Origin: Psammoneis japonica
Taxonomy: Eukaryota
Assembly (NCBI GenBank): GCA_008632985.1
Contig: QPGO01000153.1
Span: forward strand, 1-64,000
Reading direction: 5' to 3'
Length of the DNA stretch: 64,000 nucleotides
Shown: in pieces, positions 22,364 to 54,100 of the stretch
Numbering within the stretch: position 1 is the stretch's first letter
Layout: each line of letters begins with the position of its first letter
Position numbers and translations under genes: made by a program
The notes under the pieces: generated by a model
What the model was told of the DNA's origin: nothing
The model's input: only the letters and a program-made list of their open reading frames with translations
Databases searched by the model: none

Positions 22364-22859
22364 TTTCGGTAAGTTGCTCAAACTGGTGAACAAGAAATAA
22401 ACAGATTTGTTCTAACTGTCAGAGTGAGTAAATATGGAATGAAAAGACATTCATCGGTATAAAGGTAGAATCATAGCTTGAGTTGATGCACGAATGGGCA
22501 CAAGCAGTCAACGTAAGACGAGGTCTCGGGACTCGATGCAAAACTGGCCATTAAGAATGTGCTCAGAACCGGGATATGAAGCGAGCCTATCTCGAATCGT
22601 CACGCACCAACACAGTGCCAGACAAAGAAGCGTACACTTACAATTTTGAAAACAACACTACAACGGAATGAAGGATACTACCAAATTCCAATCCATGCAC
22701 CACTGTTATTTTTGCTCGTGATAAGATCCAGTGCGGCCGCTACTTCGGATTTTCAGGCAACCCGTCTCTGCCTCTGGAAGCAATTCTGAGGTGGGGAACG
22801 CCCCCGAGTGTATCTCTCATTTTCATAAGGAAGTCTCCACGAAAAACAGCAACTCACCT

Positions 22860-24425: not shown

Positions 24426-24719
24426 TCTAGATTTTCAATTTAGATTTTTCGTTGTCGTTTTTTTTTTTTTTTGTGAGTGAGAGGAAGAATCGAGTCGCGG
24501 GTCGGGTCGCGGAACACCAACATCAAAAATTGAGGAGTCGTGGCTCGACTCGAGTTCGCGCGAAGAGTCACGAGTCTGATTCACGCATTGCGATGACTGG
24601 TGACTCCTCGACTGCTCCTCTGTGCGATGCATCATCGATTTGTCACATCTTCGCCCGGAAGAAACGTACGTTGATGGTCGTCTTCTGCTGGTGGCGGCAA
24701 TCGGAGTGACGTTGTGATG

Positions 24720-27480
24720 ACCGATGATCTAATCTGTCACATGTGATCCAGTGAGAAAGCAATCCAGCTGCTCATCAGAACAACTTCCACACCTTTTCTT
24801 CAGAGCATCTTGTTGTGTCCCTTGCCTGCAAAGTGCAACCTGAGGAGAGGCCCCTGCAGCTGCACTTGGCATCAATCATTGCATGTGATCCCAACAAACA
24901 TGTTTGCATCAACTCACAGCACAGCTGTCACGACACCCCACTCACCAGCCACATCTTCTGCAGACGACACGCTGCTGTGCTGTGACACATGAGAGTTTTT
25001 TGCAGTCATGCTCCGCATGCAATGCAGGAGTGTTTCTACGCACAATTTTTGTTGACATGTTTCCCACTTTGTGAAGTCAAAGGCTTTTTATTTCATGCAT
25101 TTGTGAGAACAAAAACAGGCCAGGTGCGCTCTCTCAAATGCTGTCTGAAGATGAGAGTGTGCACACAGGCAAACCAGAAACAATGCACTTCTGGAGGAGT
25201 TTTTGAGCACTCACAAAATTGCCTGCTTTTCTGTTGGGGATCACTCACATGATGCTTGCTGCCTGACAATTTTGCTTTGAGGCTCTCGCGTGCAGAATTC
25301 TGTTGGCCCAGCATCACATGCAGCCCCGCCCTGGGTGGGAGTGCACTCTCCACTTCCAATGTGCCTGTTTGCAGTGGGAAGCAGCTCTCCCACCACATTT
25401 GCATTGGTGGCTCTTCTTCAAGGGTGGCCAGTTGCTGCTTTTTCAGCTCAAATTTGGCCAAATGGCGTGTTGTGTTTTGTGTGAATTTTCCTGAATTTCA
25501 CTGTGCTTCGCCACGGTGAAAACAGCAAGCCACACCAGCAAGTCTGTGATGGAGGTGGCCCATCTTTCAACTCTCATTTGTTTCATGTTCCTCATGTGTC
25601 AAAGATCTTGTGTGTGGTGCATGAAAAGTTTGAAGATGACAAGCTGTTCTTTTTTTAGAAATGTTGATGATTGCGGTCACTGCAGTGCTTTGATCATGGA
25701 GCATGGCTGATGTGTTCTCATTTTTGTGTGTGATCACAAATGCTGGGATGACCCCCCCTCAAACAACCAGTGAAAACAGACCAACACCTCCTGCACCTGC
25801 CGCTGCTGTGCATCTCATCATTGCCATGTGAGCAAGGCCATCAACTTCATTTGAGCAATCCCCCTCGTGTCAACCAACTTGCACGTTGTTGGCAACTTCA
25901 AAGCGCAGCAGCAATGGTGCATTCTCTCCTGTCGTCCACTCCCCTGCTCCTCCACCACCACCCAGCTTCTCCATCTCCACCCACTGCTGCTCTGCTTGAG
26001 TCTGTGCTGATGAAAATGACATCCACTCAGCCTGTTCCACTCTCCTCCACATTGCCGCCATCATGCCCAAGTGGCTCTTTGCTGTCCTCAAAGAACTCTT
26101 CTCACCTCACCTCACCCCCACCTCCTCTTCCAACAATGAACATGTCTCCCTCCCCACTGATGCTCTCCTCTCCACCCTTTCCAAGTGCAAGCCTGCTGCC
26201 ACTGCTGGTGTCTTCGTGGACTCCACCAACCTTTGCACAATCCTGCATCCTCTGCTCCACCAAAGCTCCCACCAGCAACTCCCTGAGTGCCTCTGCCAGC
26301 CCTTCTTTTCAGGCCCTTGTGCTTCTTCTTCTTTTTCTTCTTCTTCTCAATGGCTTTGTTCCCCTGCCCTTTGACTCACCCCCTCTCCTTGCCTCCAATT
26401 GCTTTGCTTTGCCCTGCACAAGGACCCCTCCGATCTCAACAAGCTCCACCCCCACCCTGTTGACATCAGTGCAGCACTTTTCCACATCACTGGCTCTGTC
26501 ATTGCAGCTCTTTTTGTCTCTGAGTTCACCAAATGCCTTCTCCCTGATTGTCAGCTCGGCATTGGCATCAACAACAGTCTTGGCCCCTCACCCACTGGGC
26601 TCTCATGCCAACGTTGTGCTTGCTGCCTTTCTTCTGCAACTCCTGCCAAAGCTCTTCATCAACATGTTCAACAAAGTCTTCTCCTGCAATGCTTGCCACC
26701 AACTCCTTGCCCATGCCAAGGCCTTCTGTCTGCTCCTCGCGTTCTTTGACCTGGTGCATCAGAGCTGCAGTGCATGCTGGCATCACCACCTCGAGTCAAC
26801 TTGGGGTTCTTTCCTGCGGCATTGACCTTTGCCCAAGGCTGTCCCTTTTTGGCCCTGTCTTTGCCTGCCTCATTCTTTCAAGTCAGGATGTTTCCCAAAT
26901 GGCACTTTCTTTTGCTGCTCTTGTTTGGCGCCCTCCTGCTGCCACACGGTCGGAAAAAGCGAGTCTTTCCACTTGGCAGTGGCTGTGACACAAGACAGAC
27001 TTTTTTAGATCTGCTGGAGCTCTTGTGAGCAGCCAAGCCAAGCAGTTGTTGCATTGCTCAGGTGAAGCTGAGAGCAGCCAAGCAAGAGCAGCTCTGCAGC
27101 ATGAGCCTGTCATGCGAGAGCCACAAAACAGGGTGGAGTCGAGGGAGCAGGCAGCAGGGGGGGGGGGGGGGGCAAACTCAAGACAACACCACACACCCTT
27201 TGGAAAACTTCCAAGAAGAGGAAATGGCAAGGAAGGCACAAGGCTACACTGGAATGCCCCAATGCAACTTTGCACTCATCAGATGGCATCTCACCACATG
27301 TCCTTGCAGGATTCATTCAAAAATGATTCAACAACAACTGACAACGTGCCATTCTGCGCCCCCGCGCTTCAGTCATTACCGCACGGAAATTCCAAATTCC
27401 AGAGTTGTCAACATCCCAACATCTGATTTGGAGATTGTCATTTGATTCGGCCACATTCTTGTATAATGCACACAGCATGC
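24720..27480. mobile_element. Decayed repeat domain 2 (TpA- and CpG-depleted)
   Basis: Same compositional signature as domain 1; six-frame ORFs here almost lack Tyr; poly-G run near 27160. The element family cannot be identified by eye. Confidence 0.6.
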
Positions 27481-27529
27481 ATCATGCTGTTGATGTTGTT
27501 GCAGGTTCTCGAGGCACATTGAAGGCAAG

Positions 27530-27955
27530 ATGGTATTCTCGGTGCGATTCATGTTTCAAGTAAACGCCACAGCGGTGCTGGCCAACGGCTTGGTGTATCT
27601 TCTGGCTCCCCAGCTGCTTGCGCATGTCTTTCCCTCCTTTGTGGAAGCCCCCCAGCTGCTCGGTGACACGTTTTGCGGTGCCATTCAAGTTGCCTTTGGA
27701 ATATGTGGATGGCTGGGTCTAATGAGTGGAGAGTATGCCAAGTACAAATCGGTCCTATTGATGCAGTGCATTTACAAGGTGATCTTTCTTTTTTCCGTGG
27801 CCTTTCATTATACCTTCGTCCCAGATAAGTTTGCTGACGAGCCTACGCCCTTTGAGTGGTTCGTTTTAGGCATCTTTATCTTTGTGGCCATTGGAAATGG
27901 TGTGGCTCTCTGGAATGATAAAGCAGTGGCTGGAAAAATGAAAAAGCTAGTCTAG
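27530..27955 (+). CDS. Small multi-pass membrane protein (141 aa, about 4 TM helices)
   Basis: ATG to TAG open frame with four hydrophobic segments and normal Tyr content. Confidence 0.55.
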   Translation: MVFSVRFMFQVNATAVLANGLVYLLAPQLLAHVFPSFVEAPQLLGDTFCGAIQVAFGICGWLGLMSGEYAKYKSVLLMQCIYKVIFLFSVAFHYTFVPDKFADEPTPFEWFVLGIFIFVAIGNGVALWNDKAVAGKMKKLV

Positions 27956-28723
27956 CTACAGTATGTATCTTGGGGAGGTCGAAGAAGAATCGAATCGTTG
28001 GTGACCATATCATATCATCGTGCTCGAACCAGACGGTAAGGAATTGTATAGCCAGCCCACAATTCTGAATTCTTCTTTTTCTTCTTCTTCTTGAACCATA
28101 TCTGCGTTGCTTGCATGAATATCAAAGACGACGTACGATAATATAATAGATGAAACAATAGTCGACCCCATTTTTTCCGTTTTAGGCGCTCCCTGAATTT
28201 AACAAATTCCAAAGTTTGTCCTGCCCAAGAGACGACAACAAGACCCCGCCGTTTCGCCAATGAAATGGACCCGTGGCGAAAACAACCCTCCTTTCCTCCT
28301 CTTGCTGAACTAAACGCCATTGTAGTGCTCCATTGGTTGGCATGAAAAAGTGGGACGTCGTCCAAGTGCTTGTGACTGGGCTCAGTCCCAAGTCTGAATC
28401 CGACAATAGACGACTAGCTTGTCTGACGTCGCATAGTAATCTTTTGATTCCATTTGAAAACAAGGCCATTCTCGTGCTGAGTCCGGATACCGAAGCTTTG
28501 TTGCACAACTCTGTTGGGGCTATTCTAAAAAGGTCTCCATCAAAACCTGGTTGCTGCTTAGGCGTTCATTGTCTCTTGGAAATCTGTTTGTTTATAATTC
28601 TTTTCTTGCCAAACGTGTTCGATCACCCCACTTCGAGTAACAATAAACAGCAGACAATATACCTGTTGCATTACACTGTATGGGTACACCACGATACCGG
28701 TGACCATTGGCCGTTTTGGTCCT

Positions 28724-30032
28724 CTAAGACGTTTGGGAGGTGGGGAATACGCCGGCATTCTCAACCGGAGAGCACTTGGGTGCCACGTATGGCTGCGTCG
28801 TAATCTTTTTGGAAATCTCGTTAGTGCCCGAGACGGTCAATTCGTTCTTCATAAACCCAGCTCCCGATTCCGACAAACGTCCTTTCCAGCCACAAGCCTG
28901 ATAGAGAGCTTCCATGTCCTCGATTGCCGCCATTACATCTTTTGTGGATGGGACACCACCCATGACGGTGTTGTAGAGTACAATCGTTACAGTGCAATGT
29001 TGACTGGGGTCGCGTTTGGGATTCGAGTTAATGACACCCTTGACTCTTCTCCCAGAGCTTCCGAACCACGGCTGACTCTGGCTGCATTTGCAGTACCATA
29101 CCTTGGAAACATTCAGCACAATCGTCTTCTTCTTCGTCTTCTTCATCAAAGTAAGCTTCTTCTTCTCCAGAAGAATGGCATATGAAGCCTCCGGCGTAGT
29201 ACGCTTGACGATACATTATTGGCGTCGGTTTGGGTTTCTGCTGCAACGGAATTTGAATTGTCATTAAAGCATTGAAACGTGTACCCATGGCCTCGATTCC
29301 AATCACTGACGCGGTGGCTTTTCCCCGCGAGGCAGCCTCTGCGGCTTCTTGTTTGGTTTCGACCTGTGCCCCACCAACCTTGTGCTCGCTCCGCTCCGCC
29401 TCGAGCCAGTACAGATGCACCTCGCCGTTGGCATCGACCGCGTGGTGGAAAAGCCTTTTGGAACCAGCTCCGTCCTGCTGATAGGCGATTCCCTGAGTCA
29501 CGACTGCGTTGCGAGGATCGTCATCTGATCTCGTATTGTAGTTGTATGCTTCGGTGCAAAACTCCACCGCCTCCGATTCGTCTACCGGAAGAAACGTAGT
29601 TTGAAAACGAATGGAGACCTCCTTGTCGAGCTCTTCATCCCACAAGGTTGTCTCGCTATTGACACCATTGTAAGACGCGTACATTCCCACGTTTTTGAGA
29701 AAATCTTGGAGCGTGATTGGCTTCAATGCCACAGGTTCCTTTCCCTGTGCAGGTTCATGGTTGCCAACAACTACGGCAATGTCTTGAGCTCTCACTTTGC
29801 CAAGTTTCTCGTTCCAATTATCCGAACGAACTGTGTAGAGCAAGGCGCCGGACTTTTCATAGAGACGAGTATCGGTTATGTTTCCTCCCCAACAGCTTAG
29901 ACTTCCACCGACTGTTCCACGTTGAACGTCGTCCCAAGAGACGCTTTTGCAAGAATAGCCAGTGCCCCGACAGGCCTGGTCAATGGCTTGGCGAGTCTCT
30001 TGTATGGAGGCAGCAGCGGGTTGATTGCGCAT
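28724..30032 (-). pseudogene. Paralog (copy B) of 23064-24419, frameshifted
   Basis: Relative to copy A: 9-nt deletion (LCT), a 5-nt insertion at ~29098 and a 2-nt insertion at ~29045 that break the frame. Could be partly assembly error. Confidence 0.7.
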
Positions 30033-30674
30033 GATGATTGTTTATTGTGAGATAAGACAGCCGCCATAGTTGTGTTCTTTGTTCAGACGGTATACACGGA
30101 ACATACATCAAAACTCGAAAATCGTGGAATTGAGTCGTGGCTTGCATCTCTCTCGGGCACCCGAAGCCTGCGGGGAGTATGAAAGATGTGGTCGCGTCCC
30201 ACGACCAACATTAATACTCTCTCGTGATGATGCGGTCGCTAAAACTGAAAAATATAAAAATAATCAGTGTGTGTATAGAATTCAATGATCATGTGTCACG
30301 ACTCAGATTTTTCACCCCACTCAACTCCATGCAAGGAAAAAGGAAACAAAAGACCACCAGTCTCCAGTCTTTATGGTGCAATCCGTCACACCTGTAATCC
30401 TCCTTTGTTCCCGCAAAAGCGGATACAAGGGATGTATCACTTGCCCAGATATACTGACGACCATACAAAAATACCTTGCCTTTCACTTGCAAATTCTTCG
30501 CGACTCGCTCAACGCCATCGCGGTGCGCGCTTCAGGGCGGTTTTAGCGATTGGCACGAGTCAAGATTGATATCTTGCCGAAATCGCGGATGCGTTTTGAT
30601 CACGCATGGATGTTGCTTTCCCCGGATGGCAGTCATCACATCACAACCTATGAACGACGACGTTTGTAATAATC

Positions 30675-33860: not shown

Positions 33861-36800
33861 CTAGAAGCAATCCGTGCAACACGTGCACATGACAGCTTCG
33901 CAGTCTCCGTGCAAGGTTTCCAAATTGTGCTCGGTTCTTAGCTTGCACACGCCATTGGGGATCGCACCGGAGAAATCGTTATGTTGAAACTGGAATTCAC
34001 GCAAGTGAACCAGGTTGGAAATTGACTGGGGAATTGTACCCGACATGTCGTTGCCAGCGATGTCCAAAATTTCTATATAGCACAAACAGAAGACGGCGTA
34101 AGAGAGACTACCAACCAAAGAGAGCATACCATGATGAAATGCTTGTTTCAATGCTTACCAAGTTTGAAGAGATTTGCAATGGCATTAGGAAGCGTTCCGG
34201 AAAACGCATTGTGCTGAACTTGCAAATCGACTGCAAATCGGGGAGAAAGCAAAAACAAAATAGAATGAGCAACATGGATTTCCATCAAGAACGGATCGCA
34301 ACAGACTTACCCATACTACGCCAATTTAACAAGGGCAATTCACCACTCAAACCGTTGCTGAATAGATGGAGCGATGCTGTTGAACACGCAAAGATGTTAG
34401 GTCGCTGAGCTATATAGCGAGCGCATTGCCTGATTGGTCGCCTTTTTGAACTTACTGAGTGCCTGAAGTGACTGATACTCGTTTGGCACAAAGCCTGTCA
34501 GCTCGTTGGTATCCAAAATGAGGTTTTCTGAAACAAGCATTCGAACAACAGTAACGGTGAGCAGACGGAACCAAGAATAAATAATCAATAGAGACGATGC
34601 CGGAAATACAGATCTGATTTCGTGTCGCAACGTACCAAGCGCAGTGGCGTCTGAAAGGGTTTGTGGGAGCTCGCCTTGGAACCTGTTCTTGTTCAACTGC
34701 AAATAAGCTGTAGAATCGTGTAACCGTAAACCCCAACAAATATGTAAGCCACGTGAGGTGGACCGGGACACACCAACGTTATCACAAGAAGCACTTACTT
34801 AGACGCGTCAAATCCGCAAAGATTTCTGGAATCTCTCCTGTGAGCACATTGTGGTCCAAGCGAAGGGACTCTGAAACACACATTTCATCGAGTACAAGTA
34901 AAAGGAAGTAAGCAACAGACAAAGGGGAAATGGCGATTGGTAGTCGCATTGGTACATTACACACTACATACCCAGGGCAGTGAGTTCCATCAAAGACAGG
35001 GGAATTTCGCCAGTGAGCTGGGGGGGAAAGAAAAGATTACAGCGATGTTAGCACCAGCGTCTCTCTCAGAACAAAAGGGGGGAATGACAACCATGAAAAC
35101 TCACCCCATTCCTCCCAAGATTTAGCTCCACTGCAGAAAAGAAGACAGATCGAGTGAGCTCCGCTGCATGACATCATGACAATGGCTGCACGTCCCGAAA
35201 CTTACTCAGGTTCGTCAAATATCCATAGGTGGCTGGGATTTCTCCGGTAAACTCGTTCTCGGAAAGGTCAAGGCCCTCTGTTTGATTCAAAACAAAATAA
35301 AGAATAAGCGATCAACAACAAAACAGACAATGACATAGACAACGGCAACAGTTCCTCTCGGTGACTTACGCAAAGTAGAGAGCGCTTGGAAGTCTGGGAG
35401 AGGTCCGGAAAGATAATTATCGGCAATTCCAAATGCCTCTGGGTCACACGCAAACCAGAGCAACCACAGAAAGTCTTGTGAGTAAAAATAATTGGACGCT
35501 TTCCTCTAAAGCACAGCGCTGGAATGAATATACTTACGAAGCTTCGTCAGTTGGCTAAATTCCGCCGGGATTGTACCTTTAAGTTCGTTGGTGCCGAAAC
35601 GCATGTGAATGACGTCGGTCAGTTCTCCGAGCCAGGGCGAAAGTGTTCCCGACAACCAGTTTCCTTCAAGATTTAGACGTTCTGAAGCAAAAAATAGTGT
35701 AGGACATTAGCAGACAATACAAACATGTCCCCCAATCTCCAAATCGAAAATGTAACTTACGCAAGTACTCTATCAACCCCAAAGAATCAGGAATTGGGCC
35801 ATACAAGTTATTCCTGTCAAGGTCCAACGTTCGGAGATTCTCGAGTGCTGCAATTTCGGACGGAATAGTACCACCGACATTGTTATTGGTCAGCTTTAGA
35901 TGGAACACAACGTCGTCTTCTTCCGTAAAGGGAGTTTCGTCGTAATCGTCATCGTCCGGATATTCTTCATCGTCATACTCATCACTGTCGAATTCATGAA
36001 AGAACATAAACGATAAAGGTGTAAGTGACCTGGTGCGGTAAAGACGGAGACGTTCATTTCGTTCACTCACTCATCATCACCCTCCTCGTATTCGTCACTT
36101 TTATATTCAAATCGATTGCCAGTAGCGAAAGAACAGATAGCACAAAGCGTTAGAAACCTGGCCTTGCAAAAGCTGGGACACGCGCACATTTCGCTTGCTC
36201 GCTCGCTCGCTCACTCACTCATCGTCCCCGTATTCCTCCTCCATCTCCTCCTCGTATTCCTCCTCCATCTCCTCCTCGTATGCTTCTTCTAGTGCATCAT
36301 CGTCATCGTCACTGTGTTAAATTGATCGATTGGTATTCACAAAAGAACAGACACGACAAACGCGTTAGTCATGTTGTATCAGTCGGGACACGCAATTTTG
36401 TTCGGTCGGTCCAGTCACTCACTCATCGTCGATCCCCTCCTCGTATTCCTCCTCCAACTCCTCCTCATATGCTTCTTCTAGTGCCTCATCATCATCATCA
36501 TCATCATCACTGTGTTAAATTGATCGATTGGTATTCACAAAAGAGCAGATACGACAAACGCGTTAGTAAGTTGTGTAACAGTCGGGACACGCAATTTTGC
36601 TCAGTTCGGTCCAGTCACTCACTCATCGTCGAGGCCCTCCTCATATTCCTCCTCCAACTCCTCCTCATATGCTTCTTCCAGCGCCTCATCATCATCATCA
36701 CTGTGTTAAATTTTTATCGATTGGTATTCACAACAGAGCAATTACGACAAACGCGTTAGTAATGTTGTGTGAAAACCGGGACATGCAATTTCCTCAGTTC

Positions 36801-38408
36801 GGTCCAGTCACTCACTCATCGTCGATCCCCTCCTCATATTCCTCCTCCAACTCCTCCTCATATGCTTCTTCTAGCGCATCATCATCACTGTCAAATTCAT
36901 CATTGATTGCAAGTAACATCACATGCAGATACGACAATAGCGTTAGAAACCTGTTTTTTTTTTGCTCAAACACAGACCGGGACACGCATTTGGCTCACTT
37001 ACTCCTCATCATCATCCTCCCCATATTCCTCATAATCAGTTTCGTCGTCATCTTCGCCGAGGTAATCGTCGTCTGGATACTCCTCGTCACCGAGGTATTC
37101 GTCTTTCTTTTGCAGTTCCTCTTTTAGCTCATCCACCTCGTCTGTCAAGTCTTCAAAATCTTTTTCAAGGTCTTCATAGGCTTTTTCCAACTCGCCATAC
37201 GCCTCATCAGCATCATCTTCGTCATATTCAGGTGCAGCCGCCGCCAAGTTACGACGATCATGCCACAAATTATTGGACTCCCACGTGGTTGCATAATTCT
37301 GATCGGTACAATCGACACCATACCAAGTACAGACACTCTTGCCCGTCATCCAATTGGTCGTGACATTCCACTTGCGATCGTCTTCATCGTCAAAGACAAG
37401 ACCCGAGGGACTGGTCGTCTTGCCCGTGGCACCCATGGTGCTGTAATACAACGTGGCGAGTGCATACCGTTGAATCATTTTCACAGAGGTTTCACCGGCC
37501 TCCATGGGATCGTCTTCGGCCACCCACCAGAGGGCACGTGCTTGGGGAGTCTTGGAGTCTTGAATGACGTCGGGTTCCGTAAAGCCAGACTGGATGATAA
37601 ATTCTTGAATGGCATTGAACCGTGCCGGATTGGAGGGTTTCTTGCCGGAAGACTTGTTGCTCGATACGGCAATGGCCGTAATGATGAGAACCGTAATGAC
37701 AATGAGCAACAACCAAAAGAGACAACAGCGTTTCTGACGACGGGAATATCCACCGCATCGTGCCACGCACGACGTGCACAGTTCGCACATGCAATAAAAT
37801 GGATTCCGTGATCCACCGGAGGATAAGACACGTCCCGTGGAGTGTCCCTTGCGGCTTTGCACAAAGGAACGACGGTAGGCGGCATGAAAATCATCGCCCA
37901 AGGCTTGTTGCGATCCTGAGGCGTGGTGTTGGAGATTGATATTTTCAAATCCCAAACTACCCACGCCGACTCCACCCGATTCAGGATCCAAGGGATTGTC
38001 ATGATAGGAATTGTTGTTGCTATTCTTTTCTTTTCCTCCAGCAATCGAGAGAGGAAAGAGACTCGAGAACCTTCCAGACGATTGACTGTTTTGGGCGATA
38101 GAGTAACCTTCGTCCTCTTCCTCGTCGTCCGATTCTTCGCTCTCCCAGAGAAACTGACGAGCGCTCTGTGTATGAAAGTAGACAAGAGCAGCAAAGTTTT
38201 AGTTGAGAGGTAAGTAAGTATCCATAAGAAAATCTAACACAATATTCAAAAACAGCAGAGCAGAAATCAGCAGTCACCATCACCCTACCTCATAGGCACC
38301 AGGAGAGACATTGTTCAATTCACCATCCGGATCAGGACGGAGGTTGTTCTCCTCTGCCACGACCATGTCGCTGACTTCTTCTTGATTGTCTAGCAAATCC
38401 TTCACCAT
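33861..38408 (-). CDS. Type-II membrane LRR protein (paralog 2) with an inserted acidic micro-exon array
   Basis: Intron 1 at 38166-38288 followed by SARQFLWE. TM CCLFWLLLIVITVLIITAIAV. Cap QRYALATLYYST...NWMT...CTWYGVDC. LRR exons. C-terminal DC...CTCCTDCF. Confidence 0.85.
36071..36887 (-). repeat. Tandem exon-plus-intron repeat (~200-bp period) giving five acidic micro-exons
   Basis: Exons 36887-36816 (72 nt), 36700-36623 (78), 36509-36423 (87), 36311-36219 (93), 36097-36071 (27). Each is bounded by AG|T...GA|GTGAGT. Confidence 0.8.
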
Positions 38409-42529: not shown

Positions 42530-43840
42530 AATCTTCTTTTCACACACACACACACACAGTGGATTCACAGAAGTTTTAAGACATCCACCAGCACACTTGT
42601 AAGCTTTTTTAAATTTCAAATGAGCCCTGCCCCCACTGCAGTGCCAGGTGACGAGTGACACCAGCCACAGCAGCCCCTGGAGGCAATGTGTTGGGCAACA
42701 CTTTTGCCAAGTGTTGCACGACAAGGAGAAGCAAGAACAGTGCAATGCCTCATTGGAAAGGAGTGCTCAGAGGCCTGCTTTGTGTGTGCAATGGAATCCA
42801 TGAATGTCCACAATCATGCTCAGAAAAAAGCTGGGGCAGAGAGGTGCTGGGCTGTGCTGTTTTTCAAGCTGTTGAAACAAGCCACAAGCACCGGAAGCTC
42901 ATCTTTGCCATCACACACACTGGTGCCCCCTGCACCCCCCATCATCAGGTTTTGCCTGCACCACCCAAGCCTGACTCAGGGGTCAGTTGTTGGGTCTCAC
43001 TTGACACTGCAGGTCAAGCTCAAAGATCTGCTTGTGCTCTTGTGCAAGCAAGAGCAGCCATGCAGCTCTCATGAGAAAATCCTTGGTCTGGTTGAAAGCC
43101 CAACAAACATTGTGGCAAAGGGCACAAGCCATTTCTGTTCACAAAGTCTCTCCCAGCTGCAAGGGAAGCAAGAAAATCTTTGATGGATTGCGCCACAGAA
43201 CAGAGGTGCATCACAGTGGAAACAGTGGACAACTTTCTGCTGGAAATCACCATCCTGTGAAGAGTGCTCAGAGCCTGTGATGCACTTGGTCAGTGCTGGG
43301 TTTGATTGGGGCATGGTGACTCCCACTGGAAAGGCAGCCTGTGCTGGGATGTGGGCCACATGCCCATGCCCCAGAAAGACCGCATCTCTTGGGATTTTTT
43401 TCAGAAGCAGGGCAAACCCAAGTTTGATTGCCAGCAGACAATGTTTCAAACAAGGCCAAGATGATGGTGGAGGAACCTGTTTTTGTGTGGTTGCACCTGG
43501 TGGCCAAGCTGCCATCATGCTGGGTCTGCCCACAGATGCCAATTCTGGCAAGATGGTCCATTTTCTCCATGATGCAGATTGGCACTTAATGAGCATTTGT
43601 AGTGGACCCACTTTGTTTTTGGCGGCTGGATCTCCTCCCCCACACAGTTGGTGCAAGATTGCTTGCTTTCCAGATTGTTGCATTGAAAAAATGAGTCAAT
43701 CGTTGGGCTGCATGCCGGGCAAGCAAACTTGGCACTTTGGCGAGAAACTCATTGAGCACGGATTGACCATTGTCAACAAAGGAGCGGACACCACCTTCGT
43801 CACGGACCGTAAGCTCTTGACGGGGGGGTCCCAATAAGGC
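42530..43840 (-). mobile_element. Decayed repeat domain 3, possibly an IS630/Tc1/mariner-type DDE transposase remnant
   Basis: TpA/CpG-depleted. The minus strand gives LMMGGAGG near 42930-42950, loosely like the MDxAGGH second-Asp region, and a QP motif downstream. The family call is weak. Confidence 0.45.
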
Positions 43841-44026: not shown

Positions 44027-45555
44027 TCACGCAAGACCCAAGTCTTTTAAGCGGCCTTGATTCCGCTTGATCTTTCCAGCCTTAACTTTTCATATTCACT
44101 GAGGTCGTAATTCGGTGGGGGGTCGTAGTTTGGTGAGGGCGGTCGGTGATTGTCCTTTCTCTTTCTTCTTTTCGGTTTCGTTTCTTTTGGCTTGGACGAT
44201 GCCAGTATTCCCGATTGGCGCCTCTTGAGCCTTTCCTTTCGCTCCAGATGCTGTTTTTGTCGCTTTTCCTCTTCCTCAGCTGCATCGTTATACGCCATGT
44301 ATTCTTGACCGTCCTCCTCATCCGACCCCTCGTCGTTGTCCGAAACGTCATCCTCACTACTGCCTTCTTCATGATTGTCATCCGAATCCAGCATTGCGCT
44401 GTCCCAACTAACTTCATCGTCATCCATGATATCGTCCTCGTCACCATCCCCCTTGCCACTAGAGGACCTCTTCCTCCTCCAACTGTTTCCTTCCCGTTTC
44501 CTATGCTTTATACCCGTCAAACCCTTGTTCCAGGGTGTGAAACCAACATTCCAGGGTACCGGTTTTCGCGTTTTCTTTTGCTTTACCAGCAAATCTTTTT
44601 GGTGAGTGTCAATGACGCCAAGAATGGATGTACAACCTGATCGGTTCAGGGTTCGTTCGCCATTCTTAACAATCTTTCCAGACTCCCATTCCCTCTTAAT
44701 ATCCTTGAACCTCGCATGGGTCTTTTCAATCACTTTGGCATGGGCAATTACCCTCAAATTCTTGTCTCGGAATTTGCCACCCCTTTCGTGAATTTTGGCA
44801 ATGGTTTCTTCCACAACAATGAGCTGGCGTTCCTTGGTCGGTACAGCTGCTTTGTCCCCAAAATATTGATCTGCGTAGGTATCCAACAAGGCCCGCCACT
44901 TGGCATTTCCAGGATAGAGATGGTTCCGTCCTCCATGAGCAAAGACGACATCGTTTTCGTCATGACCAGCCCCGACTGCCACCCTCACTTTGGGTCTCTC
45001 GATTTGTCGCATCCGACTCTTGGTTTTATCAATGGCGGCGTCCAAGGACAGTTTGCCCTTGTTGTTTTTGGAGCAAAACACTCCCCCCTTGTCCAACACT
45101 ACCTGTACAACTTCGGCAGCCAGAGTGCGTCGACGATAATCTCCCTGTGGGAGTTTTTGCCATTCGGGAAAGCGGTCTTCGCAGACTTTATAAAAGAATA
45201 AATTGCCAGGATGCGAGATGGTTTGAGCCGCACCACCTCGGACGTTGTGGACGTCGTACAAGGAGTTTCTCTCAGGTTTCTTCTCGTGATGGTTGGCTTT
45301 TTCCTCAATGGAGTTAACCACCTCTGGGATTGCTGTTTTTTCACCTGCGGCTGTCGTCTTGCTGAGACTTTGTAGGGGCATAGCAGCAGCATCTGTAGAA
45401 GATGCAACCACCTTACATTCAAGCATGGCGCTGTCTTCTGGATTATTCTTCACTTTAGTACTAGTAGAGGTATCAGCGTTGCAGCGTGGGACGACTTCTT
45501 CCTTATTAACTTGCTTAACCATCTCATTGCTGGAAGATTTAGTGGCATCTGCCAT
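44027..45555 (-). CDS. Protein with two DUF6824-like domains and an acidic/basic tail
   Basis: YDVHNVRGG...HPGNLFF...VVQVVLDKGGVF and ENDVVFAHGGRNHLYPGNAKWR...IHERGGKF. Restoring one A at ~44070 gives the C-terminus EYEKLRLEKIKRNQGRLKDLGLA* (stop at 44027-44029). Confidence 0.75.
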
Positions 45556-45755
45556 TGTCGTTTCTCTCTGACCGTTCTTCGGTTATGTATAAGCTGAAGT
45601 AGTGCTGCAGATGCACTACTACAAAGTAACATGCCAGTGGTACTGTACTGTACCAGTGAAAAGGGAAAAGGAATGTAGGGCTATGGGCTTTTGGTTTTGG
45701 CGACGGGTTAATGATGGTTATATGATGATTCTTCGCTGAAATTGAAATAAGCTGA

Positions 45756-46330
45756 GGGAAGACTCCAGCCAGATGCTGGCTGAAAAAAGTCTGCTCGTCA
45801 GTGCGTTTGGGGGTTTTGCCAGTAGAATTTTTACGTACGCAGAATACGACGAGTCTGTCCAGCGTTCACCAAAACCCCCTAACGCACAGATTGACAGACT
45901 CGTCAGAGCAAATTCGACACAAGATTCTTCAGCCAGCAGCTGGCTGGAGACTCCCCCCAAAGCGGTGCTGCAACCTTATAATGCAGTGCTGCAATCTGGG
46001 TGTCGCCACGTGCAAGGAAAATCGCAGTTGTTTGTCGCGGACGGAAGGTGGCATGGACAGACGAAAGTGCAAAACATGCGCAGAAACTGTCACACAGACA
46101 GACCGCCACTGCGATTTTCCTTGCATGTGGTGACACCCAAATCATTGCACTGCACACAGGCAGCGCAGGATTTGTGCTTGTGCCATCTGTCAATCAGTGC
46201 GAATGGGTGAAATTCAGTGAACGGTGGACAGATGCCATGTCTTTTTCACACTCGTTGAAATTGTGTGCTGACAAAACTCCAAGCGCACAGACAGACAAAA
46301 TTTCTTTGGGCAGCATCTGTCCATTCACCT
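45756..46330. mobile_element. Foldback (long imperfect inverted-repeat) element centred near 46065
   Basis: 45996-46036 pairs with 46097-46140; 45854-45898 pairs with ~46186-46232; 45775-45822 pairs with ~46268-46317. There is also an internal hairpin 45756-45784 with 45928-45958. Confidence 0.65.
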
Positions 46331-47149
46331 GCCACTGGTGCACTTGTCTGCTCTCTTGCTTGTCACTTGTCGTTCAACCACAATGGCGACCATCGCGTCA
46401 ACTCAGGTGAAGTTGGGGAGGGGGATTTCGTTGTCGAAATGGAAAGTCCGAGAGGGGAAGTCAGAAGAGGAAGGAGCACAGGGGGAAAAAGAAAGTGACA
46501 GCACACGAGAAATGCTGGCAGCTGCAGGACACAACAGCGAGTCACACACAGCGATGCGTTCCCATTTGTCCAACTCAACCTCTTCTTCTTGCTCTTTGTG
46601 TCAGGCAAAGAAAATGGTGGATTCTTGAGGAAGAGACAAGTGCGCTTCATCTCTCATGTTCTCAAAGACATGCACCCCCCAGGGGAGGAGCGTTGTCGGA
46701 AAGTTTGCAGAAGGGGTCTCATCTTTTTCTTCAAGCAGCACATTTTGGATTTGAGCACCTCCGGGCCTTGAAGAAAGACAATGAACAACTCAATGAACTC
46801 ATGGAATTTTGGAAAGTGAGCAGCTGGAGGGGGGCAAAGAGGCCCTGAAATCGTTTTGCAAAAACCAAACAAACAAGCCTGCAAAGTTGTGGACAAAGGA
46901 GGGAGTGTGCAGCAACATGGAGGAATTCTTTCAGGAACTTTGTCATGACAACATTTGCAGCACTCTTCACAGCCTGTTTTGAAGCATCAATCCACAGCAA
47001 AGGGAAGAGCTCAAGCACCTGGCTGCAGCTTTGTGATGGGGGGAGTGCTTGAAAGTCTTGAGGCAGATGATCAAGGGCTTTGGGTGCACATCTTAAATGA
47101 AAATGCCAGGAGCTGATTCAGAATGTCAAGGAGAAATTGGCAGCTGCAA

Positions 47150-47400
47150 ACACTGACAATGCAAGCTCTTCATTGAATGAGAAGTGCAAAGATGGCGGTG
47201 CACTTGCTTGGTGGCAGCCAGAGACTCCTTTCAACTTGGCCAAAGAATGGCCATGTTGTTGCAAGCTGCCACTCACATCTGCCACAATCATGATTGCAAA
47301 ACCAAAAAAAACTTGCATCACCACAGAGTTCCTGCATGTCTGTCATTGATTTGGACAATCATCAGTGTGAACCACATCTTTTCAATGATTTGGTGGTGTG
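47150..47400 (+). pseudogene. Possible hAT transposase C-terminal dimerisation-domain remnant
   Basis: ALAWWQ...FNLAK...IMIAKP followed by a HIFS-like segment loosely resembles the hAT 'LxWW...LA...ERxFS' pattern. Heavily degenerate. Confidence 0.3.
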
Positions 47401-47969
47401 AACCAGGCAGCAGCATGTGCATTTTTGACTGGTGCTGCAAGTGAATGGCGCACATGCCGAGCTGCCAAGAATTCAAGAAAAAGACAGAAAACAACTGGCA
47501 CAACAATCAACAGGTTTTCTAGAATTTGAAATGGTGAGCGGCAAGCCAGTCCTCAACAAAACCAGCACTGGCACTTGATGCCATCACGGTGTTTGCTGGA
47601 CATGAGAGGTGCGACCACCAGAGCAGCTGGCTCCTTCTCAATCCAAAACATCTGTTTCTCATTTGTGCTGATGATGGTGAGCAAATTGCAGCAACACTTG
47701 GGTTGACAGATTGGTTTCACATTTTGCATTTGCAGCAGCACCTGTCTTTTTGCTGCATTTGCTGTCATGTGTTTCCTCATTGGCATCTCCAACGCTGAAG
47801 TTTTTGTGCTGCTTGCACCTTCTGTGCACTCAGCATGAGCACCCCAATGTTCCAACACACTTGTTTGCCCAAGTCATCAGTTGACTGACCTCACACACAT
47901 CAAGCACAGGAGGATGACACTTGGAAACCATGCCACCAAACACACTGTTGCATTGACTCCCATGGCCCA

Positions 47970-48470
47970 CATCATCTGACTCCGCTGATGAAATGACCGC
48001 TGTCAGGACAGCCCCTCCTTGTGTGTCCAACCTTGTTGTGCTTCCAGCATGCAACCTTCTTCTTGCCATTGTTTGGTGAACTTGTGCCCTCAGGTTTCTT
48101 GTCAGTCCTGCAGGTGCCCAACACCTGCAGGGCCTCCTTGGCCAAATTGGAGCATGTGTCAACCCCCAACATGAGCTGCCAATGCAGGTGGTCTTTCAAG
48201 ACATGCCAACAGCCCTCCTTGATGCCTTCCATTGGCATTGCAGCTGACAACTTGCTTGTCTCTTTCTCTGCTCTGGTTGTGTCATCAGCGCCCCTGCTGA
48301 GCCCATCTTCTTTCTTGGCAATTTCTTCAAATGATGATCCTGCCACAGGACATTTCAGCCATTTCCTTGGCCATGGTCACAAGCCAATCACAACAGTCTT
48401 GAAGTGTTTCTCCTTTGCATTGACAAATGAGCACCAACTGCTTCCAAGCTTCAACCACCTGTCAAAAAAA
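47970..48470 (-). pseudogene. Degenerate gag-like remnant (same family as 4700-5350) with a decayed CCHC zinc knuckle
   Basis: EEIAKKEDGLSRGADD...EALQVLGTCR...VACWKHNKVGHTRRGCP. DNA-level match to 4960-5310. Confidence 0.55.
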
Positions 48471-49150
48471 GGGATTTTTTCATGACTCTCCAGCAACACA
48501 GGCTGGAAAGCACCAAACCAGCACCAAAAGCCAACGGAAGACGCCCAATGTTGCCCAGCAACAAATGCATTGAGGAGGCTCTCTTTTTGGCAGCTTTGGC
48601 TGTTGCTTTTTGCAGGAGAACAAGAGGAGCTGCAGGGGGCAGCAATGTGTGCATGACAAATGGCCACACAGGTGCTTTGCTGTGTTTGTTGTTGGACAAC
48701 TGACCTTTGGCTGCATGGCTTTGCAGAGCTGCTGCAAAGAGGAGAAAACAGTTGTTGGCCCAGCTGCAGTCAAACAAGTGCATCTCTCACAACTGCAGCT
48801 GGCTCCAAGGCTCTTGTGCATGATTGATGCTTGTTGTGCAGTGCAGCTGCACTGAGTTTTGTGCAAGTGAGCAGCCAGCACACATCAAGGTCTGGGGTCA
48901 ACAAACTTGTTTGCCATGTCTTGACCTGCCCAGGCATGTGTGGCCACTCACAGATCACTGCAAGGTGTGCTGCCCATGCTTTCTTTTGTGAAGCAATGCA
49001 CCAATCTTTTTGGTTTCACAAGTTGTCTCCCCTCCATTGCACCAGGAGAGAGATGGCCAAAAATGGAAAATGGGGATGACCGCTGGTTTGTTCATCATGT
49101 CACAGAAGTGTGGCTTTGATGTTCATGCAGTCAACACAGCTGTCATGGCT

Positions 49151-49151
49151 C

Positions 49152-49186
<35 letters not shown>
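49151..49186. repeat. (CAA)12 microsatellite
   Basis: Read directly. Confidence 0.9.
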
Positions 49187-49679
49187 GAGCTCAGACTTGC
49201 AGGCTGGCACTTTGTTCAATTTTTTGCTGTCTAACTTGGGTTCCAGCACATGGCTGCCAATGACTCAATTGTTGTCCTCTGTGTGACCCACCTCCCCAAG
49301 ACACCGGTGGAGTGGTCATCAATGTGCAGATGGCAGATCATTCTCAGGTTGTGAGCTGTGCTTTGCTGCAGGCAAGTGGGCCCCCTCCACCACACAATGA
49401 AATGACCAAACAGTCATTGCATGACCTTGTTGATTCCAGCAGACAATGTTTTGAACAAGAGTGCTGTCACTCTGTCAAGGATGAGTGGGGTCAATGATGC
49501 AGCTGCATTCACTGCTCTTCTTGATGTCATTGATCAATGTGTTGTGTGTGGGAGTGGCACACCCTCCACTTGCGCATGACCTGCATGAGTTGCACCATCT
49601 GAAAAGTCAAACTGCATTTTTCAGAGCACAATGAACACATCCACAATGACCCCCATGAATGGCACCCACTCTAAAGCAA

Positions 49680-51189
49680 CATTGTTGTGGGAGAGGTGTT
49701 TAACTTCACCATCCTCCCAATCCACGTCGCAGCATTGCCGGATGGGAACATTTTTGCGCACGGCGCATCTGCGGAGGGAGAAAAATTTTGGAGAGATGCT
49801 CATTGTGAAGTCTGGCACACCGACTCTGGTGATCATGGCTTTGGAGAGAACCATGTCAGGTGCACATGTGAGGGAAATGTCAATGTCTTTTGCGCGACGC
49901 TGTCAATGGATGTGGCAACTGGAAACATTTTGATCCTGGGTGGCTTGGCAAGTGATGCACAGATGGCTGGCGAAGCAACAAAACCAATCGAGCCGCCTGG
50001 TCACAATGACGTTTTAGAGTTTGATGTTGGAACTCACAAGATTCGCAGGGACAGAAGGAAACATGACGCATGGATGACACTGCGCGACGAGCATCAACCT
50101 TCCAGATGAGGCACATTCATTGCAGGGGGCACGTCACACCAGAATTTGAAAATCACTGAAGTTGCAACAATTCATGAAATCTGGAATCCTGAACATGGCT
50201 TTCAAGCTTTGCCAGGAGCAGAAATGCTTGCCATGAGCAAAACGGAGGCCGAAACAGAGAACTCAGAGGATGCTTGGTGGCATCCTCACGTGCATGTCAA
50301 TTCGAAAGCAGACATTCTTGTCATGATTGCGGATGAATGTGACAACGAGATTTGTCGTGTGGGAGTGCATGGCAATGGATCGATTGAAATGGTGGGAACC
50401 AGACCTTTCAAGGGCCACAAGCTGGCTCCTTCCATCATGTACGATGTGGATCAAGTCGCAGTGATGGATGCTGAAGATGGAATGATGTGGTCGTGGAATG
50501 TTGCCAATGCCTCCAACTCGACCTTTGTAGCAAAAGCTCCTCTGTCAAAGCCACGTTTTAACGCTGCCATGACAATGCTGCCGGATGGTCAAGTCATGAT
50601 CAATGGTGGTTCGGGACTTTGGAGTGGCAAAGACATGGGTGCCAACAATCATGCCTTAAATCGCAGTGTGAAACATGCTGAAATGTGGGATCCTGTTACA
50701 AACACCATGATTGAGGGGGCAGAGCAAGATGTGCCACGCCTTTGTCACTCTTCTGGACTCATTGTGCCTGATGGATCGGTTTTTTCAGCAGGTGGAGGAG
50801 CACCGGGAGTTCTTGCCTCACCAAATGGCCAGGTCTGCTGTCCCGGCTGCTTGTTTGATGCACAGTCAGGAAATCCGGTGACCCATCCAACGATTGAGGC
50901 CTGTCCCAGCAATCTCACTTCTGGCATGACTTTTTCAATTGCTGCCAGTGGTGATCCATTGGATGTTCAAAAGGCAACAGCCACCAAGCCTGGCTCCATG
51001 ACGCATGCTCGTAACGGCGACGCTCGGTGGCTCGATCTTGCCCATGCAACAATTGGAACGGAGATGACTGTTTCCTTGCCAGATCAGAATGTGGCAGCAC
51101 CTGGTGTGTGGCATCTCAATGTCATTGACAACCAAGGAGTGCCATCCCATGCCCGTCTCATCATTTTGCGCAAGCCAGAACAAAATTAA
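49680..51189 (+). pseudogene. Galactose/glyoxal-oxidase-like (AA5 copper radical oxidase, kelch + C-terminal DUF1929/E-set) pseudogene
   Basis: PIHVAALPDG, NVFCA, MTHG*HCATSINLPD, LPDGQVMINGG, AEMWDP, VPRLCHSSGLIVPDGSVFSAGGG, GSMTH, PGVWHLNVIDNQGVPS. Internal stop at 50075, frameshifts, and both copper-ligand Tyr positions changed to Cys. Confidence 0.8.
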
Positions 51190-54100
51190 AAGCACTCGTG
51201 TGATGAACTTCAATCAGCGACAAAAATGGGCAGAAATGAGACCAAACAGTCAATCCCATTCAAATGTTTGATGATCGTAACACACAGCCATGACTTGCAA
51301 TTCACACTGAAGAGCCAGTGTTCAAGTGGAGAGAAGCAGCTATCCATCTCGCTCCAGAGGTGCAAAAACCGTCTGTTGTGTCCACATGCATGCTGCTCCA
51401 CGCGCTTTGATTGCGCACATCATCATGACAATCAGACGATCAGTCTTTTGTCACCTCTGCGCCAGCTGCTGGGCTCTCTCTCTGTGTGTGTGTGGTGTGT
51501 GCTGGCAGAGTGGTGATGGAGTGCTCTCACTGAGGCATTGCATCACATTTGCTGATGATGCATCTCTCCCACACTTCTCAAGTGCTCTCTCTCCATTTCC
51601 CACAGCCCCCCCCCGGTGTGACAAGCACACGTGTTCCAGGGGAGCAGCAGGCATGCCCGCTGCCCTGCTGCACAACACCTCACCCCAAACCCACTTGTTG
51701 GGACCACACACAGGTGCAGCCTGTCTTGCACATGGCTCAAGTGGGTGTGTCACCACCAAAGCATGCACTGCCCAGCAGCTGCAGGCTGCAGGGCTTTCAC
51801 GAAAGAGAGGGGCAGGAAAAGATGTGCACAAACAGCCAGGGAGCCAAAAGACACACCACACCATTGGCCAGCACTGCTGCAGCTTTTGCTTGTTGATGCA
51901 TGAGTGTTGCCAAGAAAACACTGTCTTTTGCCCCACACAAGCAGAGCTGCGATGACAAATGTCAGCAACAGGAGCTCAACACTGCAAAAAAAGAGTTGTG
52001 CTTGTGCTGTTCAACAGAGCTGAAAGCTCATTTTCAGTTTCAAGCCAACTTTGAAATTTGGAATTTGCAAAACAAATGCCCAAAATGTGCTGTTGTGTCC
52101 AAAAAACAGCATTGCCAAAAACAACATGTTGTGACAAACATCGTGCTGTTCTTGAGAGGAGTCATCCTGTGCAAGGGCACCACCAGATTGTGAGATGCCG
52201 CCCAATGAGTGCAGAGTTGTGTTCAACAACTCCAGCTCAGCTTTGTGTCTTCTTTGCATTTCTCCTCTTTTTGGAACCCACCTTCCCAAAAGTGTGTTTT
52301 TGGCCCTGTCTCCATTTGTTCTGTGTGCGCCAGGTGCTGTGTGCATGTGGACTTTTTCAGCTGCTCTGCTCTCCACACTCCACCTTGGCCAAGAAGCAAC
52401 AGCTGTTCACAAGAATTCCAGCAGGTCTTAAATGTTTGTCATGTCACACCCACCTGCTGATGGGTGGGCAGAATTCATGAGGCTGCACTTGTTGTTGCTG
52501 GCACAACACAAAAGATGAAAAAAGAGCAAGAAGAGAAGGAGGGCGGGGGAAGCTCGTGTGCTCTTTGTCTCCCAGTCACAGCCTGTGGCGCATGTTTTTG
52601 AAGCTGAGCTGGGAGGAGTGCACATTGCCCCTCATCTCTGGAGCCTGTGCCGGTAATGCACAACTTGCTCTAATCATCAGACACACGTCGGCAGGCTGGT
52701 GTCTTCAGTGTCCTCTTGCGCAGCTTCTGCCGTCTTCCCAGCAGCTGTGGGTCCCAACGTCATGCTTCCACGTGTGATCACAACCCCCCCATTTTTTACC
52801 AAAATGCATTTCCAGCCGACTAACATCATACTAATACAAAGTTCCCGATAACTTTTGGGGTCGCAAGTAGAGGGTTGCGTTAGTTGCAGAGCTATGACCA
52901 AAAATCGTCCCTCGCACTTTCACGTGCAACAAAGGTGTTCCGCGAAACGTTAGTTCCATTTTCAAATACCCGACACCATGAACAATACATACCCAATATA
53001 TTCTCGCAAGATCATTGTTTTAAAGGGTGGGAGACTGACAATGCTCATATCTTGTGTATTTTGTGGCTCTAGCCGGGATCAAAGTCTAGCTAATTCTACC
53101 AAAAATGTTGAGTCGAGTGGGTCATACGGGATTCAAGACACGTGACTCGCTGTACGATGAAGTGTTCTCGACACCGAGATTAGATGATAACATCAACACA
53201 AGACCTATTTCATGGCTATATTCTATTCTCTAATCCATGGCTGGCCTCGTGACAACTATATTTGACCTCTTTCATGCTATAGATAGGCCAAGTAATCCAT
53301 AAAAACTCATTACAAGCAACACACTCCTGTTTTCAGATTTAACATTTTTGTGTTTTTGCGATCAATCTAGAGAGTGTGTACAAGCAAGGGGGCACTTCCA
53401 TTACATAAATTTATTCTTCTATAGCAGAGTATCATCAATGTGTAACTTTGTCAACGTTGTTTGACTGCTTCTTTTCAACAGTACGCCAACTTCACTCTGC
53501 ATTTTTACTCCAAAATCCGACCCACGCCCCACCCTCTCCCACTCAAAAACACTGGCTGATCGCATTGCAGTTGCTTTATTAAAGTCTTGAAAAATATTCC
53601 TCTTGTCATTGGCGTTGCTAAAACGGGTTTGACGACGGGACTACGACATTGGATTCGTCGATGAGCTCACACGACGATTGACACTGTGAAAATTGGCTGC
53701 GTCTGCATGACAGTTGAGTGAGACAACAAGTAGTGAGACTTTGGCACAATGATAACACCATTTCGATTCTATATTACTTGCCTTTATATATCCGCCGGCT
53801 TTTACTCTCAGCGGGTGTCGAAAATCTGGCGAATGAGTGGTTGATGAAGACTCGGCACGTGACATGGCGTCACGAACGACTGAATTGGTATGTTTATCAA
53901 TAGCTCGCCACAAAATCAAAATCGTGGAGAACGTATTTAGATACCTATCCAAAAGATGCTAATTGATTATATGCCAAATACGTTCTCGCAGAATCGAAGG
54001 TTTAGATAACTTTCTTAGCGTCGCAATCATCACCATCGTCGGTGCGAGATTTGATCAAATTCCCCGCGATAGCACCGCGGTGATAGTCTGTACGCTCATC

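Follow-up and report, generated by a model that had tools for sequence, protein, structure and literature searches.

The window analysed here, a stretch of 64 kb (positions 1 to 64,000 of contig QPGO01000153.1, assembly GCA_008632985.1) from the pennate diatom Psammoneis japonica, contains four blocks of DNA in which the dinucleotide TpA is almost absent, CpG is strongly reduced and CpA and TpG are enriched. These blocks very probably arose by a local, DNA-level and strand-symmetric transition hypermutation at both self-complementary pyrimidine-purine (YpR) steps, TpA and CpG, and we propose a link to the TpA-targeted hypermutation of the chlorarachniophyte Bigelowiella natans (Mettrop et al., bioRxiv 10.64898/2026.01.13.699255). 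The starting point was the segment 49680-51189, which carries the remains of a galactose-oxidase (GO)-like gene. The original prediction, made from the letters of this segment, had read it as a pseudogene recording a systematic conversion of TpA to CpA or TpG on both strands. The observation was confirmed and the core inference is supported. With respect to the unit of mutation, the pseudogene is indeed affected, but the loss of TpA and CpG is a property of the 6.7-kb block around it and of three more blocks in the window, and is not gene-specific.

Within 49680-51189, 9 TA steps (observed/expected ratio (o/e) 0.10) and 54 CG steps (o/e 0.58) were counted, with CA and TG at an o/e of 1.65 and 1.70. 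This scarcity of TA is far beyond chance, because TA makes up 3.96% of the steps outside the blocks. The TA o/e of the whole window was 0.45, and it fell to 0.01-0.08 in the 2-kb windows of 2001-6000 and 46001-52000, where CG stood at 0.16-0.43 and CA/TG at 1.8-1.9. TA-free gaps were found as long as 1,712 nucleotides (nt). The four blocks delimited (2123-5963, 24441-27245, 42610-43810 and 45979-52654) add up to 14.5 kb; beyond them, the TA o/e was 0.43-0.73 in the remainder of the window. Comparing steps inside and outside the blocks, TA accounted for 0.23% versus 3.96%, CG for 1.66% versus 5.29%, CA for 11.27% versus 7.69% and TG for 11.12% versus 6.81%, corresponding to 0.06x for TpA, 0.31x for CpG and 1.47-1.63x for CpA/TpG relative to the outside level. 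The share of all YpR steps stayed nearly constant (24.29% inside, 23.75% outside), as pure transitions predict. CA and TG were equally frequent in every block (452/448, 286/288, 134/134 and 764/745, respectively), which bears out the claim of A>G changes in TpA context on both strands. CpG decay accompanies the loss of TpA, as had also been proposed, and since TpA was reduced to 0.06x and CpG to 0.31x, the TpA process was at least as fast. Per kb, TAA occurred 2.3 times in the blocks versus 19.1 times outside, TAG 1.2 versus 16.0 times and TGA 49.4 versus 39.1 times. The long open frames of the blocks are due to this loss of TAA and TAG.

The first block (B1, 2123-5963) is built of repeats of 1.06-1.29 kb and retained 7 TA (o/e 0.027) and 43 CG (o/e 0.19). 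The second (B2, 24441-27245; 7 TA, o/e 0.043; 62 CG, o/e 0.35) lies between direct duplicates of 1.5 kb. The third (B3, 42610-43810; 3 TA, o/e 0.042; 14 CG, o/e 0.18) is separated from the fourth by a gene with a DUF6824 domain (Pfam; open reading frame (ORF) 44050-45582, minus strand) of normal TA content. The fourth block (B4, 45979-52654; 17 TA, o/e 0.04; 122 CG, o/e 0.30) holds the pseudogene. B1 is made of internal repeats and shares a repeat family with B4, most of which is found at single-copy depth. Most block edges are sharp, with TA per 100 nt rising from 0 to 4-12 within 100-200 nt. Two edges fade over ~500 nt, namely the left edge of B1, where the depletion fades in from ~1600 (1500-2100), and the right edge of B2, which extends to ~27700. 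Inside B4, the GO-like segment is the least decayed part (TA o/e 0.10, CG 0.58), its neighbours in the block having TA at 0.02-0.03 and CG at 0.21-0.24. Among the trinucleotides of the blocks AGC, GCC, GCA and CCC were raised and GAA and AAT lowered. The surviving TA steps were followed by a 3' T in 3 cases versus 21 expected, ATA/TAT being almost absent and TAA/TTA over-represented (p 3e-7), and this 3'-neighbour bias may reflect a flank preference of the process.

The restriction of the A>G/T>C changes to TpA was assessed indirectly, by a comparison without outgroup polarisation: TA fell to 0.06x, AA/TT stayed at 0.92-0.94x, and the lost mass was gained by CA and TG. Expressed per kb, AA/TT reached 76.4/76.8 in the blocks versus 81.7/83.9 outside, a drop of 6-8%, and TA 2.6 versus 39.6, a drop of 93%. 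A model converting 94% of the TA and 69% of the CG steps of the background predicted 11.39% CA and 10.48% TG, compared to 11.27% and 11.12% observed. Several known activities produce clustered transitions and are used or have been proposed as defence, among them APOBEC3 (G>A), ADAR (A>G) and DNA polymerase eta (Pol-eta; WA>WG, W being A or T). ADAR and Pol-eta favour A after T; however, both also act on ApA, and the blocks lose only 6-8% of AA/TT. The spared AA/TT therefore argues against neighbour preferences of the Pol-eta WA>WG type and of the ADAR type, and the Pol-eta-like polymerase suggested as a candidate by the original prediction is not supported.

An RNA or single-strand intermediate would leave the two strands unequally mutated, and the blocks show no such asymmetry. 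This bears on the idea that transcripts were hyperedited from A to I by an ADAR- or ADAT-like enzyme on double-stranded RNA, reverse transcribed and inserted. RNA-editing deaminases do prefer U before the edited A (10.64898/2026.01.13.699255, Discussion), as this idea would ask for. However, a single RNA strand would have been copied back, and the observed change is symmetric, with CA equal to TG in all blocks and with both Tyr to His and Tyr to Cys replacements in the gene, which argues against an RNA intermediate. Furthermore, AA is spared, CpG is lost within the same limits, and the blocks consist of tandem repeats plus a gene fragment, in which neither a reverse transcriptase nor a poly-A tail was seen. 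We regard an origin by RNA editing as extremely improbable.

The gene inside B4 shows what the mutations did to a coding sequence. A GO-like pseudogene with a kelch propeller and an E-set (DUF1929) was located at 49690-51189 on the plus strand by profile search, tblastn, Pfam and matches to solved structures. A hidden Markov model (HMM) built from 31 homologs yielded a single domain of 237 bits, which spans nt 49690-51183 and covers 12-474 of the 481 profile positions. Using P0001 (871 amino acids (aa), the best of 31 longer homologs; residues 421-856) as query, tblastn aligned nt 49711-51162 in one frame with an E-value of 2e-59 and 30% identity. The Pfam domain GO-like_E_set matched the C-terminal part of 49680-51189 (E 3.5e-13), and the best E-value among solved galactose oxidases matching the frame was 8e-24. 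Both the kelch propeller and the C-terminal E-set were recognised in the GO-like frame. By these homology matches, 49680-51189 is assigned to the catalytic and C-terminal domains of a dead GO-like gene. The frame is interrupted by an in-frame TGA at 50107-50109 on the plus strand. An alternative path through 50045-50109 in frame 2 requires two frameshifts and has its own TGA at 50075; the region of the R-x-Y motif can be aligned in frame 1 or frame 2 with similar quality, and frame 1 is the only one that the HMM reports. A stop codon lies just upstream of 49675, and the GO-like frame has no ATG start. Since either TGA 50107 on the main path or TGA 50075 together with two frameshifts on the alternative path breaks the gene, the sequence is a pseudogene and not an enzyme.

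Protein searches in the longer and near length classes found GO relatives of at most 33% identity, those with a named source being bacterial. Of the scans for a closer GO relative, the one of metagenomes yielded no more than two matches of 19 residues (L001 and L002), which were not used, and the one of viral contigs found none. At the level of the fold, the pseudogene belongs with the AA5 copper-radical oxidases (1GOF; GlxA, 4UNM). One Cys, two Tyr and two His are presumably the active-site residues of AA5 enzymes, and their conservation was computed from the homologs. The Cys at 49891 (30/30 homologs) is kept, as are the two His, one at 50746 (30/31) and one at 51004 (30/30). In contrast to the AA5 enzymes, both active-site Tyr columns read Cys or His, namely at 50743 (Tyr in 31/31) and at 50062 or 50081, depending on the frame, and a TGA stands in the frame.

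The 347-aa ORF at 50146-51186 contains exactly one Tyr, as originally noticed, encoded by TAC at 50440-50442. Over the whole GO-like span (49687-51186) Tyr was found at 1 of 500 codons (0.2%) compared to a mean of 3.1% in the 31 homologs, while His (5.2% versus 2.05%), Cys (2.2% versus 0.57%) and Met (4.0% versus 2.5%) were enriched. At each of the three near-invariant Tyr columns the pseudogene has a His or Cys codon that a single transition separates from TAY (Y in codons being C or T). These are CAT (His) at 50062-50064 in the region of the R-x-Y motif (Tyr in 30/31 homologs; frame ambiguous), TGT (Cys) at 50743-50745 in the R-x-Y-H-S motif (31/31), with the following His codon kept, and TGC (Cys) at 50848-50850 in P-x-Y-L (30/31), all on the plus strand. 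In the alignment to a solved galactose oxidase the pseudogene has 'vprlchs' opposite 'VPRTYHS', and the residue of the 50743 column is, as we assume, the axial copper ligand. The individual examples of the original prediction fared unevenly. TGT 50743 and TGC 50848 stood. In the column of CAT 50281 homologs naturally carry His (H 13, Y 11 of 30), TGC 50836 lies in a column divided between Y (13) and F (13), and CAT 50293 (F/I/W), TGT 50839 (T/S/A) and CAT 51112 (M 26/31) are not Tyr columns at all. The example 'MTHG*HCAT' had been read in another frame and is ambiguous, and the near-invariant Tyr column of this region lies at CAT 50062 in the HMM frame. In the alignment of the 31 homologs, 1 of 10 Tyr-consensus columns was retained compared to 87 of 200 other conserved columns. 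Among the 122 conserved columns that differ from the consensus, 87 are not explained by single transitions and 35 are one transition away, 7 of the latter fitting a lost TpA, 7 a lost CpG and 21 other transitions. Apart from TpA and CpG changes, the gene has, by this alignment, also simply diverged.

As the bases might have been misread at modified positions of a long-read assembly, the window was compared with contigs from X1, a public run holding 77% of the sampled words of 45000-53500. Seven X1 contigs with a k-mer depth of 48-72 (unique flank 51) match 3,730 nt of B4 at ~99.5% identity, with 16 differences. In the window this covered part contains only 7 TA, and at none of the differences does X1 have a TA that the window lacks. 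Over 50111-51167 the contigs show 8 differences, again without a restored TA. The listed contigs leave out 49145-50110 and 51168-52667, so the codons 50062-50081 are without read cover; two further runs, X2 and X3, add nothing inside B4. The sole surviving Tyr codon is lost in X1, which has TGC in place of TAC (50441), so that 1 of the 7 covered TA sites differs. Altogether, 17 differences between window and X1 were listed for single-copy B4: 10 with TG or CA in the window and CG in X1, 2 in the reverse direction, the one at 50441 and 4 others. The variable sites between window and X1 are hence CpG steps plus one TpA step, and both the CpG o/e of 0.18-0.35 in the blocks and the 12 of 17 differences of the type CpG<->TpG/CpA are as decay driven by 5-methylcytosine (5mC) predicts. 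At the 12 CpG-site differences (46216-50952), the window has T/A and X1 C/G in 10 cases, a bias which could come from differing strains or haplotypes, or from consensus errors left in the assembly at methylated CpG. This bias, and the fact that the platform of X1 is not on record, are what speaks for an artefact of base calling or assembly. Against it, the X1 contigs, at a depth of ~50-70 like the unique flank, reproduce the TA-poor sequence, and the paralogous copies have truly diverged, also by transversions and indels. For these reasons we give an artefact of base calling or assembly a very low probability.

In one X1 contig the positions 45950 and 51534 are joined, and the 5,583 nt between them are missing. 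It was not taken as an allele lacking the block, with 21 letters on the shorter side and its start in a high-copy repeat; the join is either an allele without most of B4 or a repeat artefact.

Whether the blocks were mutated in this genome or arrived in their present state can be judged from paralogous copies. In three depleted paralog pairs, pooled, 62 of the 354 aligned YpR steps had CA in one copy and TG in the other, compared to 1 of 334 in the undepleted 1.5-kb duplicate. A separate resolution of ancestral TA or CG steps in each copy would give this pattern, which points to mutation in this genome and away from a native composition. The member of the repeat family in B4 (47844-48461, minus strand; X1 depth 0.5-1.2k versus ~55 for single-copy DNA) is homologous to 4939-5574 in B1. 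The two copies are 88% identical as purine/pyrimidine strings and 70.5% identical as bases, with 124 transitions versus 39 transversions. In a less depleted copy at 27169-27730, TA is found at 6 steps, and the aligned steps of B4 are CA in 3 cases and TG in 3. The competing view holds that the blocks entered this genome as viral or horizontally acquired DNA that lacked TA and CG from the start or had been hypermutated in an earlier host. For such a view speak the sharp block edges, the nearest source-named GO relatives, which are bacterial and all at or below 33% identity, and the fact that no diatom-like GO homolog was found. In addition to the discordant copies, however, the invariant catalytic Tyr has been destroyed, and the block composition is for this reason not that of a working gene; the gradual edges at 1500-2100 and 27200-27700 and the polymorphism at CpG and TpA between window and X1 point the same way. 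We hold a native or pre-integration composition to be very unlikely.

We are aware of the fact that a number of results weigh against hypermutation as outlined above, or at least against its simplest form. The mutations were polarised neither by an outgroup nor by an intact paralog, the nearest GO relative being 33% identical. Between depleted paralogs, transitions at non-YpR positions were also frequent (124 of 818, compared to 25 of 736 in the control), and these paralogs are ~2.5x more diverged by transversions as well, which implies some contribution of age or of an additional, looser AT>GC drift. GpC reached 1.43x of the background versus 1.06x predicted by the two-process model, and the GC content of the blocks was 0.496 versus 0.469 predicted. 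The two processes must therefore be supplemented by age, by a starting composition that was different, or by an additional and weaker drift from AT to GC. The evidence for ongoing TpA mutation consists of one site only, 50441, and X1, of unrecorded platform, may stem from the very sample that was assembled. As to the target, Pfam searches of 101 open frames of the blocks and their flanks found no transposon or viral domain, so that 'foreign DNA' is at most a candidate target; the matches comprised only the GO-like domain (B4), DUF6824 (flank) and a sub-threshold DUF3693 (E 0.0052). High-copy repeats directly adjoining B4 have normal TA and are unmutated, so the target must be set by more than copy number.

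The closest known counterpart is found in B. natans. According to the preprint, the mutations that mutation-accumulation lines acquired in two integrated viral regions were A>G/T>C in 230 of 231 cases, all on TpA, at a rate of ~6e-7 per site per generation, and the genome contains 124 TpA-poor clusters rich in CpA+TpG (10.64898/2026.01.13.699255). The likeness lies in the strict TpA>TpG/CpA change on both strands, the discrete regions, the TpA-poor footprint and the many unannotated frames. The diatom blocks pass the cut-offs used for B. natans (Rho TpA <= 0.43, Rho CpA+TpG >= 1.52, as given there) with TA at 0.03-0.04 and CA/TG at 1.66-1.88. Differences are also evident. The host is a diatom (Stramenopiles) here and a chlorarachniophyte (Rhizaria) there. 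Depletion is near saturation here (TA 0.06x), whereas the active region of nucleocytoplasmic large DNA virus origin in B. natans still has 3.3% TpA. CpG is lost in the same blocks of the diatom, in which, unlike in the viral regions of B. natans, no viral or transposon domain is recognisable, and the process is known here from its sequence footprint. The text of the preprint contains no mention of CpG or diatoms (10.64898/2026.01.13.699255), and a literature search did not find a report of TpA hypermutation in diatoms. The original prediction knew no description of the signature as a genome-defence system of diatoms; in B. natans the signature has been measured, and for diatoms the statement stood in the literature searched. 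The diatom blocks are best filed as a new case of the TpA-targeted regional hypermutation lately described in the chlorarachniophyte, here saturated and overlaid on CpG decay.

Two better known systems share part of the picture. Fungal repeat-induced point mutation (RIP; Neurospora and others) likewise leaves DNA-level, strand-symmetric, dinucleotide-specific transitions in blocks, dead genes and transition-diverged paralogs. However, RIP converts CpA to TpA and so creates TpA, whereas here TpA is destroyed and CpA/TpG are the end state; the opposite direction had been stated correctly at the outset, with TpA almost absent and CpA/TpG at 1.47-1.63x of the background. In contrast to the targeting of duplicates by RIP, highly repeated elements beside B4 are untouched. 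Diatoms possess DNMT4 enzymes of unknown function that are related to fungal RID (PMC9998398). According to the same source, diatom transposable elements are CpG-methylated in a DNMT5-dependent manner (PMC9998398). The decay of 5mC in methylated transposable elements resembles the present case in the CpG>TpG/CpA changes of silent DNA, but it covers only the CpG third of the lost steps, and 5mC chemistry cannot remove TpA.

In the mechanism we propose, TpA would be converted to TpG or CpA nearly to saturation and CpG to TpG or CpA until about two thirds are gone, CpA/TpG presumably being the absorbing state. Tyr codons (TAY) would turn into His (CAY) or Cys (TGY) codons, TAA and TAG stops would vanish so that frames remain open passively, and only TGA stops could arise. 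The CpG part is probably the decay of methylated cytosine in silenced DNA. By analogy, the TpA part would be the same process as in B. natans, where silenced foreign DNA is hit. With regard to the chemistry, an enzymatic A>I deamination with a strict requirement for a 5'-T is tentatively put forward as a possibility somewhat short of an even chance, and thymine oxidation at TpA with mispairing is considered improbable; for B. natans an ADAT2-like deaminase has been proposed as candidate (10.64898/2026.01.13.699255).

Whether a directed genome defence or a by-product of the chromatin state is at work appears about equally balanced. Formulated as a by-product, heterochromatin would carry a putative symmetric, TpA-directed mark on A or T, the instability or faulty repair of which gives TpA>TpG/CpA, and the blocks would be old silent DNA. 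TpA and CpG are indeed lost together in the same blocks and within the same limits; both steps are self-complementary, so that a mark on them might be copied after replication; and young high-copy repeats nearby are as yet unaffected, as expected if time in silence matters. On the other side, we know of no TpA-directed mark in diatoms, and in B. natans the process was on in 11 of 15 lines only, which its authors read as regulated (10.64898/2026.01.13.699255). A by-product of this precise kind is possible, although we consider it somewhat unlikely.

Further features of the window were noted. At the left edge of B4, exactly, lies a palindromic element with inverted ends (45750-45960) resembling a miniature inverted-repeat transposable element, with normal TA and CG and an X1 depth of 3.4-5.6k versus ~55. 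B2 is bracketed by the 1.5-kb direct duplicates 22856-24426 and 28545-30039 (87% identity), whose minus-strand frames of 456 and 337 aa had no Pfam match. A 357-aa stop-free frame of B2 (25752-26822, plus strand) had 0 relatives in 1.84 billion representatives, with all Atlas leads below 0.9. A gene for a CHD-type chromatin remodeller (9840-17810, minus strand) combines SNF2, helicase C, bromodomain, CXXC zinc finger, chromo and PHD domains, and an exon of it is 59-68% identical to diatom proteins, the named matches including Seminavis, Mayamaea and Nitzschia, which places the host with the pennate diatoms. A tandem array of ~200-nt units with 61-95% identity occupies 36070-36950.

TpA-specific hypermutation of selected DNA has been measured directly only in B. 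natans, in 2026 (10.64898/2026.01.13.699255). For annotation, the long open frames and His/Cys-rich proteins in such blocks are mutation artefacts and not genes, because Tyr codons and TAA/TAG stops disappear there. If our interpretation is true, a second, ecologically dominant lineage has the process, pointing to an old shared system or to repeated invention, and the presence of the footprint could be compared with that of ADAT2-like deaminases, TET/JBP oxidases and DNMT4 as candidates, giving a comparative handle on the enzyme. The TpA process would then also be tied to CpG-methylated silent DNA. In its widest and rather unlikely form, diatoms, and perhaps SAR (Stramenopiles, Alveolata, Rhizaria) lineages at large together with Bigelowiella, would mark silent or invading DNA on both YpR steps, with 5mC at CpG and a putative heritable modification or targeted deamination at TpA driving this DNA irreversibly to CpA/TpG, a RIP-like defence of which both the chemistry (A>I or oxidised T at TpA) and the enzyme would be new.

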